Source: Eledone cirrhosa
Taxonomy: Eukaryota
Direction: 5' to 3'
Assembly (NCBI GenBank): GCA_964016885.1
Contig: OZ024747.1
Span: 24,800,001 to 24,864,000, forward strand
DNA: 64,000 nucleotides
This document shows positions 76 to 63,430 of this stretch, piece after piece (the stretch's first letter is position 1; every line of letters begins with the position of its first letter). The translations under genes and the position numbers were made by a program. The notes under the pieces are model-generated. The model worked only from the letters and a program-made list of their open reading frames with translations. It was not told where the DNA came from and searched no databases.

Positions 76-659
76 TAATATAAGATCAAAAGATGGTTAA
101 AGGAGTTCCATATATTTTATTATGCGCATTTCAAAAACAAACATCATCAAACAATAATATTTGTGTTTTCATCAGATAAAACAGGAGAACATGATATGAA
201 GGCTTTTTTTCATCCTCTCCACCCCCCCCCCTCCCTAAATAAAATATTTTTTCCTCGCACATATCCTCCCTTCGTTAATTTTCAAAATTTTTAATTTATA
301 CAGTATCTTCCAACGGTTTTCAACCCCTCTATATAAAATATATCTCCTCTCAGTTATAAAAACTATCTCTTTCTCTCTATCACCCATCTCTCCCTCTCAT
401 CTCCTTCCCTTTTCATCCTTTTCTATCCCCCCCCCCTCTCTAAATAAAATATTTTTCCCAATATCACACATCAATCTAAAACCACTTTTCATATGTTGAT
501 TTAAAACTGCACTATCAACAAGTGTTTTTTAGCCTTCATATCATGTTCTCCTGTTTTATCTGATGAAAACACAAATATTATTGTTTGATGATGTTTGTTT
601 TTGAAATGCGCATAATAAAATATATGGAACTCCTTTAACCATCTTTTGATCTTATATTA
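76..659 (+). mobile_element. PLE 3' UTR/pseudo-LTR fragment (family A) with inverted upstream copy
   Basis: 76-204 is the reverse complement of ~531-659. 205-659 resembles the reverse complement of 42610-43050, the 3' UTR of the GIY-YIG fragment at 43604-44625. Confidence 0.8.
554..620 (+). ncRNA. Type I hammerhead ribozyme, family A (other copies 115-181 -, 42650-42716 -, 51795-51861 +)
   Basis: Stem I ttttat/ataaaa; core CTGATGA; long stem II (caaatattatt/gatgatgtttg); GAAA; palindromic stem III tgcgca; AUA cleavage triplet. Confidence 0.85.
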
Positions 660-746
660 TGCATACTCCAGTCCCACAAACTGTAGAGTGCTTCTTATCC
701 GATATCTGCATTGCTTTATTGTACTACAATAAAACTCACCTCCTAC

Positions 747-1434
747 ATATGTATATATATATATATGTATATATATGTATATATATATATATGTATATAT
801 ATATATGTATATATATGTATATATATGTATATGTATATATATATGTATATATATATGTATATATATCTATATGTATATATATATATGTATATATATGTAT
901 ATATATATATGTATATATATATATATGTATATATATGTATATATATATATATGTATATATATATATATATATATATATATATATATGTATATATATGTAT
1001 ATGTATATATATGTATATGTATATGTATGTATATATATATATATGTATATGTATGTATATATATATATATATATGTATATGTATATATATGTATATATAT
1101 ATGTATATGTATGTATGTATATATATGTATATGTATGTATATATATATATGTATGTATATATATATATATGTATGTATATATGTATATGTATGTATATAT
1201 ATATATATATGTATGTAAATATATATATATATATGTATGTATATATATATATGTATATATATATATGTATGTATATATATATATATATATATGTATGTAT
1301 ATATATATATATATGTATGTATATATATATATATGTATATATATATATGTATGTATATATATATATATATATATGTATGTATATATATATATATATGTAT
1401 GTATATATATATATATGTATGTATATATATATAT
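747..1434. repeat. Interrupted (AT)n/(ATGT)n microsatellite
   Basis: Direct inspection. Confidence 0.97.
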
Positions 1435-1435
1435 G

Positions 1436-1556
1436 TGAAGGCGTGTGGCTGAGTGGTTAGGCAATTGGTTTCGCAATCGTAAGGTTGTGAGTTCGATTCC
1501 TGGACGAGGTGATGCGTTATGTCCTTGAGCAAGACACTTTATTTCACGTTGCTCCT
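1436..1556 (+). mobile_element. tRNA-derived SINE head with CORE-like segment
   Basis: Pol III A box tggctgagtgg and B box gttcgattcc, then CORE-like tgtccttgagcaagacacttt. Confidence 0.75.
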
Positions 1557-59040: not shown

Positions 59041-60065
59041 TAAGCAATATTTTAGAGTTCCAACTTTCTGTCGGACTGTTGGGTGGGTTTTAATGGCGGC
59101 GCGACCGGCTCCCTGGCGCACGAGCGTACCTGGAGTGCTTGGAAAAATAAATTTTCCCTCCTTTCGGTAAATTAAAATACTCGGCGTAGCTTAATTCGCC
59201 ATGGGGCCCGGGGCGCGGCCGCTGTTTTAACCGCCACATAGTACCTTTAAATTACAGAACAAATCGGAACTATTTGATATATCAACCTGAAAATGTTAAA
59301 CTGTTGAACTTTAAATTTTCTAACCTCTTTAATATTGAATATTGATTATTAATTTTTTAACTTCATCCTATAAATATAAACATTGTAACACACTGACTCC
59401 CAATATATTCACCTCTGCTAAGATGCGGGTCCCTGTGAAAATTTTCTCGCGCCACTCCTGGCCTGACTGTGGTGTGACATTAATATCGACCTTCCTTCCT
59501 CTCTCTTTCTATCTTCCTTCTTGTAGCCATCAACCCTTACTTTTCTACTTCTATAAGCAAAATTTTAAAGTTCCAACTTTCTGTCGGACTGGTGGGTGGT
59601 TTTTGATGGCGGCGCGACCAGCTCCCTGGCGCACGAGCTTACCTGGAGTGCTTGGAAAAATAAATTTCCCCTTCTTTCGGTAAATGAAAATACTTGGCGT
59701 AGCTTAATTCGCTATGGGGCCCGGGGCGCGGCCGGTATTTTAACCGCCACATAGTACCTTTAAATTACAGAACAAATCGGAACTATTAGATATATCAACC
59801 TGAAAATGTTAAACTGTTGAACTTTAAATTTTCTAACCTCTTTAATATTGAATATTGATTATTAATTTTTTAACTTCATCCTAGAAGTCTAAACATTGTA
59901 ACACAATGACTCCCAATATATTCACCTCCGCTAAGATGCGGGTCCCTGCGAAAATTTTCTAGCGCCAGTCCTGGCCTGACTGTGGTCTGACATTAATATC
60001 GACCTTTCTTCCTCTTTCTTTCTATCTTCCTTCTTGTAGCCATCAACCCTTACTTTTCTACTTCT
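59041..60065. repeat. ~513-bp diverged tandem duplication containing a GC-rich fold-back
   Basis: taagcaa..gttccaactttctgtcggact at 59041 and 59554. Confidence 0.9.
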
Positions 60066-60456
60066 CTCTTCTCTTCCTTCTCTTCTCCCCTCTTCCTGTC
60101 TTCCTCTCGCAGACTTATCTTCCTTCCCCCTCTTGCTTGCCTATATCTGACCGGTAGTAGTTGCCTTTCTTCTTTTAGCTGACATTAACCCTGGCTTCTC
60201 TTCTTCTTTCTTCCCCCTTCTTCTCTCTCCTTCCTTTCTTCCTTTCTTTTACCTTGTGTCATGAGATTGACGCTAACTTATATTCCCATCCCTTTCTGTT
60301 TTCGTTTATCTGACCGGTAGTAGCATACTATAAACTTTAGCCACGTCACTTGAGGGCGACCGGCTGAGGTTGAAGGAACAGAATAGCGGGCGCCCTCGAG
60401 TCTTCGATTTTCAGCCCCATGGATTTTATCTATTACATTCACGTATTATATTTTGA

Positions 60457-60514
60457 ATATCTGATGATATCACCGGATTCATACGGAACCCGGTCATTGA
60501 AATGATCATAGTAT
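60457..60514 (+). ncRNA. Type I hammerhead, family N
   Basis: atat CTGATGA t-at.accgg...ccggt.at-t GAAA tgatca TA gtat. Confidence 0.8.
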
Positions 60515-60789
60515 AATAATCCTTTCAAGGATTTACACAAATCCAGCCTCCTGCCATTTCATTATAATATTAAACTCCGTAATAGCACCACCAACTACAA
60601 AAACAAAGACGGATGAACTGCCTTACGTTGAGTACTCTCTATATTATTGCATTACGATTGACCATACGGAATAGACCAGCTCTATACAGTGGTGAACCTC
60701 AAACCTGAATATATATATATATGTATATATATATATATATATATATATATATATATATATATATATATATATATATATATATATATATG

Positions 60790-63430
60790 TTTGTTGTGGT
60801 AGGATGTCAATAGATAGCATGCCGAACTACATCGAGGCAATGCAACCCCACATCACCAACACGAGCGAAGTTGCACAACTAACACACGATGGGAGAGAAA
60901 AAATCCTCAACGCTCACATGATGATGTGGACTGACATCCTAAAGCCAAGCAGACGCACTGCCAACAACTTCCAGGCGTCTAACAATGGCATACCACCCTT
61001 GTATGGGCTCCGCAAAGACCACAAGACAGTCGACGACCCGACAATAGGACCACCAACAAGACCTGTATGCGGAGCTAATATAGCTAGCAACTACAGGATC
61101 TCCTACTTCCTCTCAATGGTTATACGCCCCATAATCAAGATGTCCCCAGATGTATGTGAAAGTACAGAGGACCTCCTCAGCAGAATCAGTGAGTGCAACA
61201 AAAACAGGAGCCTATCCAACTGCATAATAGGCAGCATGGATGTGGTGTCACTGTACCCATCCATTAACATTGATTTTGCTGTGAAAAGATGTGTGGAGAT
61301 GATCATTGAGAGTGAGGTGGAGTTCTGCGACGTAACTGGGCCTCCTACTTAGACTTACCTACGACACTGACTACCTAGACAGCCATGACCTTAGATGTTT
61401 CTGCCCTAGTAGACCTATAAGAGGTAGACCCCCCACCATAACCTCAATGGCTAAAAAGACTCCCATAGGAAGGTGGATTGGGTGGACCAAAGCTATACGG
61501 ACCCCCCAAAACACTGATCAGGTAAGAAAAATGGTCGCACATGCAATAGGGGCTAGTATCAAAACTACCCTAAAGGGCCACATATTTAAGTTCAATGAGA
61601 AAATCTACACCCAAAATGAGGGAGCAGCCATCGGCGTCAGCATAGCTGGCGATGTTGCCAACCTTTTCATGGTATGGTGGGAAAGGAGACTTAAAGATCT
61701 CCTTAATGAAAGCTCCATAGACCTCATCATGTACTCTCGTTATGTAGACGATATCAATATAGTTATAAGAACACCCCCACTAGAGAGCACTAACAAGTTT
61801 GATTTAGAACGTAGCACGATGGAAAGCATCCAGCAGATAGCTAATTCCATACACCAGAGTATAACTGTAACTATAGACTTCCCTTCCAAACACCCTAACA
61901 ATAGACTACCTGTATTAGACACAGAACTCTGGATTAACACTATAGACGAGAGAGCCCAAATTCTCCACTCACACTATGCTAAACCCATGGCCTCCAAATA
62001 CCTGATACTCAAAAACTCAGCAATGTCCAGTAGTGCTAAGTTTAATATTCTGATCGCAGATTTGGTACGAGTGATGAAGAATGTGTCCAGCATGTGCGAC
62101 CCAACAGAAATGGAAGGACACATCCAACACTTCATCAACCGCATGCAGTTCTCTGGCTACAACCAAAGAGACAGAGTCAGAGTATACGAAGGAGCCATGG
62201 AAAAGTATAAGACCCTCATAGAACTGGACATGAAAGGAATTTGCCCACTATACAGGAGCAAATCATGGAATAGCTTAGATAGGGCTAGACATAAGATAGG
62301 GAAGGCCACATCATGGTACGACAACCAGAGATATCAGAGTGTCATGTTTGTGGACGCCACCCCTGGAGGGAAATTAGCTAACCAGTGTAGAAAGGCCCTG
62401 AGAAAGACCCACTTAAAAATAAAGGTGGTAGAAAAGCCAGGAACCACCATAAAATCCCTGATCAGCAAAACCTACCCTTTTAAGAAAACCCACTGTACCA
62501 ATAGGAAATGTATCATATGTAAGGTGAACCCCCGGATAAACTGTAAAACTAGAAACGTAGTCTATAGCATAAGATGTACAGAGGGTACTTGCAGAAACAC
62601 GACAACAACATACATAGGTGAGACAGCTCGTAGCATAGGTGAAAGGATAGACCAACACTGGGGGGAACTAAAAGGACGAAAAAACGGGTCAGTACTATAC
62701 GAACATGCTAGACAACATCATGACGGTAACATAGACAACATAGAAATTAGAATAATATCTAAACATAGGAATGACCCAGCAGATAGGCAAATCAGAGAGG
62801 GGCAAATCAGAGAGGCCAGTGAAATAGAAATTAGAAGACCAAAGCTAAACAGAAAGAATGAGTGGAACAACAACAACACCCAAACAAACAACACTGACCT
62901 AAGAGAAGTATAAATAAATAAGTAAATTAAATTAAATAAAATAAGATAAATAAATACATACACAAGCACATAAACACACACTAGTCACCCAGCAGACACA
63001 ACACTATACACACTAGTCACACATCACACATAACACTATACACACACGCAAACGCATGCGCAAAGAAGACAAAATAAAATAAGATAAACAAACAAGCAAA
63101 TAAATAAATAAATAAATATATAGACAGACTGAACAAAAAAAATGGCGTAGACATACAACACAACAGGAGGAACAATGAATATAACACCACTGACGATGTT
63201 GCAGATGTGCAACGAAAGATTTATGTAAACTATATATATATGTGTTTGTCTATATTGTATCTGTATTATTTTTGACCGCCGGTCAGTCAATGGCAACATT
63301 GAGGACCGAGTAAGTTAGATCGCAGATATATATATATAAAAGACAGCGAGAAGCGAAAACCAACCAAACAGTGAGTGTGTTCTGTTATTAATTCTGGCAA
63401 TATTACGCAAATATGACCCTCCCCAAATAT
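60790..63430 (+). mobile_element. 5'-truncated PLE (Nematis-like): RT + GIY-YIG (60804-61352 / 61447-62913, one frameshift) and pseudo-LTR family B
   Basis: [69 protein letters not shown]. Confidence 0.92.
63184..63226 (+). ncRNA. Hammerhead-like motif, family B (minus copies 7354-7397, 8589-8632), weak stem I
   Basis: ca CTGACGA t gttgca gatg tgcaac GAAA gatt TA tg; positionally homologous to family F. Confidence 0.55.

Follow-up and report, generated by a model that had tools for sequence, protein, structure and literature searches.

The question raised by a 64,000-nucleotide stretch of the Eledone cirrhosa genome (GenBank assembly GCA_964016885.1, contig OZ024747.1, positions 24,800,001 to 24,864,000 of the forward strand; here called the window) is why so many hammerhead ribozyme motifs lie side by side in it. 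An earlier note, made from the letters alone, described about 12-15 distinct families in one dense, gene-free 64-kb block and traced them to Penelope-like elements (PLEs) and retrozymes. These type I hammerheads are very probably the 3′ ends (pseudo-long terminal repeats, pseudo-LTRs) of several PLE families together with the monomers of tandem retrozymes, predicted to cut element RNA to unit lengths and likely written into (TA)n by PLEs. The window is ordinary for its genome and is not a dedicated locus.

Hammerhead Motifs in the Window

Motifs were sought with a type I descriptor consisting of a core with C3-G8 or U3-A8, stem II, GAAA, stem III, UH, and a stem I of at least 4 bp. It finds 23 matches, 11 on the forward and 12 on the reverse strand, and hence no strand bias. 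The islands outside microsatellites hold 22 of them, versus a mean of 0.1 and a maximum of 1 in 30 dinucleotide shuffles; a stricter descriptor finds 14, versus 0.05. Clustering at 80% groups the 23 matches into 11 clusters, and adding three hand-checked sites (60457, 38366, and 63184) gives 14 families. Together with hand-checked variants there are 30 copies, besides three degenerate copies and the unconfirmed site at 25697. Seven pairs of motifs lie on opposite strands, and every pair faces outward.

Eleven of the 15 sites cited in the earlier note pass the descriptor directly (554, 14933, 16042, 27268, 32889, 47096, 47838, 49479, 54131, 56927, and 57585), and three are atypical. Stem I of site 60457 contains a wobble, and other copies of its family, F15, pass; 38366 has an A at core position 4 and is caught only by a mismatch-tolerant search; and 63184 has the core and stem II with a stem I of only 2 bp beside the core. 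The remaining site, 25697, is an incomplete hammerhead: stems I and III are absent from the window copy and from 15 fetched copies. Its half-motif (family F9) sits at the 3′ end of a PLE, is conserved in some 790 copies, and is a decayed or unrecognised fold. A truncated hammerhead and a type III hammerhead were both rejected as readings of it, the 3′ side being the same in the fetched copies and no pairing fitting. All the stem III palindromes named earlier are present. The description of the stems as mostly unrelated was too strong, given that stem I is common to 554 and 32889, which belong to a single clade, and that 57585 and 63184 are homologous.

Standard models miss these motifs, as had been expected. 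No window motif reaches the gathering score of the Rfam hammerhead models, and the 15 cited sites and five other stretches yield three sub-threshold matches, the best at 20 bits with a cut-off of 34. An Rfam scan of the window at E ≤ 10 and general repeat finding are dominated by microsatellite matches (miRNA models in Rfam). Repeat and Rfam annotation miss the whole set. Type II, type III, and permuted forms number zero in the window versus 17 type I and stay at shuffle level in a 590-kb outside sample; motifs of the minimal kind, whose stem III has 0-3 nt, are absent from the window, with one doubtful case in the sample. At 2107-2157 lies a perfect small palindrome in which each strand has only a hammerhead 3′ half (GAAA, CGCG, UC).

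Motifs at the Ends of Penelope-like Elements

The window contains ten PLE fragments that include sequence of a GIY-YIG endonuclease. Six of these, from five families and lacking the N-terminus, display the marks of the Hydra clade, namely a CxCX5C linker and CxxC and CxH around E/N, and likewise the (TA)n target; the other four have a CX2-5CxxC linker. Among named relatives of the reverse transcriptase (RT), identity is highest to Octopus sinensis (68%) and O. bimaculoides (57%), followed by bivalves (44-52%).

A hammerhead-like motif follows nine of the ten fragments on the same strand, a count that takes in a core-mutated F7, a variant of F6 with G17, and the unconfirmed 25697. The distance from stop codon to motif is 184-1652 nt in eight fragments and 5.8 kb in one with nested insertions. 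Pairing of a motif family with its own type of PLE recurs elsewhere in the genome: F7 lies 181-207 nt from the endonuclease of the 19865 type at five loci, F1 lies 1006-1258 nt from the 43604 type at three, F4 lies 1430-1554 nt from the 34372 type at two, and F13 accompanies the 37651 type at three. The pairings of F6 and F14 were seen in the window only. Furthermore, the marks of PLE insertion are present, as an inverted 5′-truncated copy in the seven outward pairs and as a one-sided 30-40-bp tail at two end sites of F2. Motifs beside PLE endonuclease ends, and tandem units without an open reading frame (ORF), support the PLE and retrozyme origin first suggested.

One PLE, at 10805-14524 (+), is a chimera in which the RT of a CX2-5CxxC-type family is joined near 13790 to a Hydra-type endonuclease and 3′ end. 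Positions 13788-14524 are 97% identical to 37699-38435, and an unfused copy with an intact junction is found at locus L168; the chimera is the product of template switching or recombination. The F13-bearing 3′ untranslated regions (UTRs) at 38190-38436 and 14280-14524 lack a segment of about 740 bp found in loci L037, L052, and L063. Upstream of the chimera, a spacer at 9300-10800 (+) with short direct repeats at 9509-9804 lies between tandem neighbours that belong to a single PLE family.

Retrozymes

Three families form ORF-less tandem units with inverted arms: F2 (312 bp), F12 (591-593 bp), and F10 (about 535 bp). With a type I hammerhead in each monomer they correspond to non-LTR retrozymes, as F3 and F11 do in part. 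The F2 arrays end at unit position 81-82 in 13 of 25 cases and at 107-113 in 11 of 25, so that 24 of the 25 ends lie 141 or 166-172 nt past the predicted cut; this two-site pattern matches the PLE tail. A further tandem retrozyme of 316 bp, which has a U3-A8 core and does not occur in the window, is present at L122-L127 (C1:6.52 Mb) and at C1:62.81 Mb.

The F10 hammerhead is predicted to work as a monomer. On the ribozyme strand its fold contains 14 G-U among 51 pairs and is worth -32.7 kcal/mol, versus -12.8 kcal/mol on the other strand. The G-U pairs could be scars of A-to-I editing.

Evidence from Stems and Folds

Self-cleavage of the window motifs is predicted 3′ of H17, and several lines of evidence bear on whether the required stems are maintained. 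In the 590-kb sample, 50 anchors were set by core, GAAA, and UH alone, leaving the stems free; 33 of them have a stem I of at least 4 Watson-Crick pairs, versus 9.5 (maximum 16 in 1000 rounds) after flank swapping. Among 27 variants of the F4 clade picked with stem II unconstrained, both partners differ between variants in seven of the nine pairs of stem II, and the covariation score is reached by none of 500 shuffles, a comparison in which relatedness of the copies is not controlled. Single compensatory changes are seen in stem I of F10. Across 31 clusters, the core is C3-G8 in 25 and U3-A8 in six, and stem III is fully self-pairing in 23.

Palindromic stems suggest cleavage in dimers. Two F2 units fold as a dimer at -109.5 kcal/mol compared with -93.8 kcal/mol for two active monomers, a gain of 15.7 kcal/mol, and lie 5.3 kcal/mol above the minimum free energy (MFE). 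Dimer-only cleavage is likely for 4-nt palindromes, and F2 and F3, which have them, resemble the dimer-dependent amphibian type. It is uncertain for palindromes of 6-8 nt, which allow two pairs and a tetraloop and may cut as monomers.

Genome-wide Scale

The outside sample comprises 59 stretches of 10 kb (590 kb) at round coordinates on C1-C15 and C17, and a second sample covers 200 kb around the window. The window is dense, as claimed: it holds 0.36 motifs/kb, versus 0.098/kb in the 590-kb sample (58 matches, of which about four look spurious) and 0.095/kb in the flanks. Shuffles of the 590-kb sample give 1, 2, and 2 matches. The collection is not, however, a property of this block, as 7 of the 11 window clusters recur elsewhere and account for 32 of the 58 sampled matches. 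Match counts rise with microsatellite content (rho 0.65), from 0.044/kb in the 32 poorest stretches to 0.23/kb in the eight richest, and single 10-kb stretches hold up to six; dinucleotide microsatellite makes up 28% of the window. (TA)5 or longer lies within 300 nt downstream of 70 of 81 motifs and upstream of 35, versus 505 of 2894 random points. Because the same families occur genome-wide and density follows microsatellites, the window is best described as a local pile-up.

The genome scanned, 3.0 Gb, is estimated to hold about 250,000 hammerhead motifs. The sample extrapolates to 295,000 (95% interval 188,000-412,000), or 234,000 with a stem I of at least 5 bp, in a roughly estimated 65-83 families. 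A loose pattern finds 150,324 forward matches versus 26,921 in the control and 217,408 reverse versus 32,367 (inflated by double listing), an excess of about 247,000, not all with intact stems. Tight patterns for single families or clades, each with no control matches, give 72,051 exact matches for the F1/F4 clade, 24,799 for F7/F8, 21,424 for F13 (with A at core position 4 in 95 of 100 among the matches listed), 13,472 for the F14 3′ half, 7,458 for the F12 3′ half at about 591-bp spacing, and 154 for F10. A pattern for U3-A8 with a GUC site finds 4,646 versus 109 in the control.

The highest printed count found, though bioRxiv supplements may hold higher ones, is that of the axolotl, with 126,247 canonical motifs in a 28-Gb genome; the count here is about twice as high, the two having been made with different descriptors. 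No genome-wide cephalopod count was found in the literature searched. Schistosomes carry tens of thousands of hammerheads in a much smaller genome, so the density need not be a record. At one motif per about 10 kb, most long introns would hold several, and orientation bias in introns can therefore measure in vivo activity. A single genome with dozens of families also offers natural swaps of the core (U3-A8, A4), of stem II (13-104 nt), and of stem III, a panel for two questions, one on the function of PLE hammerheads and the other on whether retrozymes are mobilised by PLE proteins via circular RNA. The word "ribozyme" is absent from the main text of a study of octopus repeats (PMC13282606).

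Proposed Mechanism and Alternatives

By analogy with published relatives, read-through or tandem transcripts would self-cleave, best when two copies pair through a palindromic stem III, and may form RNA circles. Target-primed reverse transcription would then begin 3′ of the ribozyme, at internal positions that are fixed, and this would explain why the ribozyme is kept in heavily 5′-truncated copies; the inverted arm would add a second ribozyme copy. The resulting insertions would be flanked by TA repeats that accept further insertions, so that microsatellite-rich patches gather many families. The majority of the copies are probably relics without activity.

Several results weigh against this account. 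Among fetched copies, many with a 1.5-kb flank, a PLE ORF lies upstream in only 4 of 13 for F1 and 5 of 30 for F4; most copies lack one, as is expected of 5′-truncated insertions, and the short flanks contribute to this. Neither an ORF nor a clean tandem could be tied to F3, F5, F11, or F15 in fetched copies, and neither the descriptor nor Rfam finds a hammerhead at 9300-10800, downstream of the PLE fragment that begins at 8857. The "further pair types" measure in the F4-clade stem II is not above shuffles (310 of 500), and related sequences can beat a shuffle control without structure. Stem III of F7/F8 is non-palindromic with a self-duplex energy of at least 0, the active fold of F13 is not found in its MFE structure, and the Rfam failure applies to every motif in the window. 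According to one review, the type I hammerheads of invertebrates are for the most part efficient at cleaving as monomers. Finally, two flanking stretches with more than 5 kb of microsatellite have 1 and 0 matches, indicating that TA content does not by itself account for the distribution.

Chance matches in AT-rich, hairpin-rich repeats are scarcely credible as a general explanation. They would account for the few spurious sample matches, for the 1-2 shuffle matches per 590 kb, for the loose-pattern control of 26,921 per strand, and possibly for 25697, but chance is excluded for the 11 descriptor-passing families by the shuffles, the empty clade-pattern control, the U3-A8 with GUC pattern, flank swapping, and stem II covariation. 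A dedicated locus, either a ribozyme cluster or a piRNA-cluster-like trap that gathers or uses many ribozyme families, would fit the window's 3.7-fold excess over the sampled mean and the return of the flanks to average density; resampling 6.4 stretches reaches 23 matches in 0.02% of draws. It is nevertheless very improbable in view of the densities in microsatellite-rich stretches elsewhere, the balanced strands, and the presence of the same families everywhere. It is very improbable, too, that the motifs, although hammerhead-derived, are now no longer nucleases but signals that the PLE enzyme uses for protein binding or priming. The low in vitro activity reported for PLE hammerheads (PMC4209133), the deviation of the abundant F13 and F7/F8 and of F9 from the active consensus, and the fixed spacing of motif to element ends argue for such a role. 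Against it, the core, the C3-G8/U3-A8 swap, and a non-G H17 are kept across the 31 clusters (in part imposed by the descriptor), and retrozyme tandems need unit-length RNA.

A bolder proposal can be entertained, though it is doubtful: this genome would carry the largest known hammerhead load, in 60-80 families, and would tolerate it because activity is throttled; host selection would have tuned ribozyme strength, palindrome and stem I would act together as pairing codes specific to each family, and A4 would mark a family with a novel core that is active. Of the families counted, all those that exceed 5,000 copies have either an altered core or a stem III of insufficient length to fold by itself, whereas F10, with a long stem III and a GUC site, has near 150 copies. 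This contrast rests on one family and may be due to chance.

Features of the Window

Table 1. Hammerhead motifs and PLE sequences, in window coordinates
Feature	Position	Strand	Remarks
F1 hammerhead	552-622	+	36-nt stem II, TGCGCA palindrome; passes descriptor
F1 copy in inverted arm	113-183	-	outward-facing partner of 552-622; passes descriptor
F1 further copy	42648-42718	-	
F1 further copy	51793-51863	+	
F2 retrozyme insertion	15548-16872		inverted arm 15548-15831 and 3.3 tandem 312-bp units; CGCG palindrome
F2 hammerhead	15671-15713	-	
F2 hammerheads	16042-16088, 16356-16398, 16668-16710	+	
F3 hammerhead	27268-27312	+	CTAG palindrome; ORF-less unit with embedded microsatellite
F3 second copy	27750-27794		
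F3 deleted copy	35647-35669		
F4 hammerhead	32889-32954	-	TATATA palindrome; 1426 nt downstream of Hydra-type PLE 34372-35340 (-)
F5 hammerhead	47838-47892	-	TATATA palindrome; passes descriptor
F6 hammerhead	54126-54181	+	in inverted 5′ copy of Hydra-type PLE 53126-53975 (-)
F6 sense copy	50928-50983	-	
F6 variant	52687-52741	-	G at cut site
F7 hammerhead	57585-57629	+	non-palindromic GAAC; inside 523-bp palindrome; partner 57425-57469 (-)
F7 core-mutated motif	20457-20501	+	205 nt past PLE GIY-YIG fragment
F8 hammerhead-like motif	7356-7393	-	2-bp stem I, extra nucleotide before stem II
F8 copy	8591-8628	-	
F8 copy	63188-63225	+	
F9 half-motif, unconfirmed	25700-25728	+	U3-A8 core, 4-bp stem II, GAAA
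F10 hammerhead	14933-15062	-	GUC site, long G-U-rich stem III; ORF-less ~535-bp tandem/inverted unit
F11 hammerhead	47096-47142	+	U3-A8 core, GUC site; partner at 45964-46010 (-) faces outward; Rfam Hammerhead_1 below threshold at 20 bits
F12 retrozyme insertion	48249-49631		two 593-bp units (-) and inverted arm; 8-nt palindrome, GUC site
F12 U3-A8 hammerheads	48482-48569, 49075-49162	-	
F12 U3-A8 hammerhead	49479-49566	+	
F13 hammerhead-like motif	38366-38416	+	A at core position 4, 5-bp stem III
F13 copy	14456-14506	+	degenerate stem III
F14 hammerhead	56926-57066	+	104-nt stem II, CGATCG palindrome; in inverted 5′ copy of Hydra-type PLE 55686-56846 (-)
F14 sense copy	49723-49863	-	nested insertions between it and its PLE
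F15 hammerhead	60457-60514	+	TGATCA palindrome; stem I wobble in window copy
PLE GIY-YIG fragment	8857-9290	+	CX2-5CxxC linker; 3′ end of a family that has its next copy from 10805 onward
PLE ORF	10805-14276	+	one frame break; RVT_1; chimera from ~13790
PLE GIY-YIG fragment	19865-20501	+	Pfam GIY-YIG; followed by core-mutated F7
PLE thumb and GIY-YIG fragment	23136-25921	+	long 3′ UTR; inverted 5′ copy 22939-23135; holds F9
Hydra-type PLE thumb and endonuclease fragment	34372-35340	-	CxCX5C, CxxC..E, CxH
Hydra-type PLE RT and endonuclease fragment	36473-38187	+	motifs match Hydra-1_Obim alignment rows by eye
Hydra-type PLE fragment	43604-44626	-	F1 hammerhead 42648-42718 lies 894 nt downstream
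Hydra-type PLE	53126-53975	-	F6
Hydra-type PLE	55686-56846	-	F14
PLE RT and GIY-YIG fragment	60792-62913	+	frameshifted; F8 motif 277 nt downstream

The description of the block as gene-free holds for host genes, none being seen among its long ORFs, but the window contains two long interspersed nuclear elements (LINEs) besides the ten PLE fragments. The LINE at 2774-6952 (-) has an open 1033-codon endonuclease-RT frame and an upstream ORF; a 3′ fragment with 98% identity to it lies at 31148-32304 (+), and the other LINE, at 38653-41876 (-), is frameshifted. A tandem pair of 513-bp units lies at 59041-60065 (+), upstream of F15; the units have a GC-rich core but contain no hammerhead. Within TA repeats are sequences at 1437-1674, 21858-22460, and 44625-44924 that we take to be a tRNA-like short interspersed element and two RTE-type-LINE-like 3′ ends. 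A long repeat-derived open frame in the flank (L265:3875-6571) draws several Pfam scores with no passing stretch and was dismissed as spurious.

Comparison with Known Systems

Much of what the window displays is already known from the PLE pseudo-LTR hammerheads of metazoans, reported at 2,000-9,000 per genome (Cervera and De la Pena 2014, PMC4209133). These likewise comprise several families per genome, mostly as dispersed single copies and opposite-strand pairs, with a U3-A8 covariant core, an extra nucleotide before stem II, palindromic stem III, and short stem I variants; F7/F8 resemble the short-helix Drosophila Penelope variant described there. Unlike them, the present set reaches about 250,000 motifs per genome, has a stem II of up to 104 nt, and never wholly lacks loop III. 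Three points were not found in print: the number of motifs in one genome, the family with an A4 core, and the difference in copy number between the abundant families with a short stem and the rare one with a long stem. The main text of PMC3088659 does not contain "U4A".

The tandem units resemble metazoan non-LTR retrozymes (Cervera and De la Pena 2020, PMC7229834; Li et al. 2026, 10.64898/2026.07.22.740005), which are also ORF-less tandems of 300-600 bp with low GC, one hammerhead per unit, and a stable predicted circle; the axolotl Amex2 retrozyme shares the U-U mismatch at the stem II base. Many families lying side by side, the U3-A8 core of F12, and two-armed PLE-type insertions set the present units apart from known retrozymes, for which a PLE origin has been argued (Li et al. 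2026, 10.64898/2026.07.22.740005). The two fixed end sites of F2, about 27-31 nt apart, recall the two internal start sites used in vitro by the lizard Poseidon PLE (Frangieh et al. 2024, PMC11167929), but here the pattern is a genomic footprint on non-coding RNA only.

A further match is with Hydra-clade PLEs, for which (TA)n insertion and hammerheads have been reported (Craig et al. 2021, PMC8557442). The window shares with them the CxCX5C linker, CxxC and CxH around E/N, the (TA)n target, and a 3′ hammerhead. The supplement to that study lists an octopus Hydra hammerhead (Hydra-1_Obim, Octopus bimaculoides) with a CCANTGG-type stem III, as in F6. Unlike the elements described there, at least five Hydra-type families and four CX2-5CxxC-linker fragments lie together in one window.

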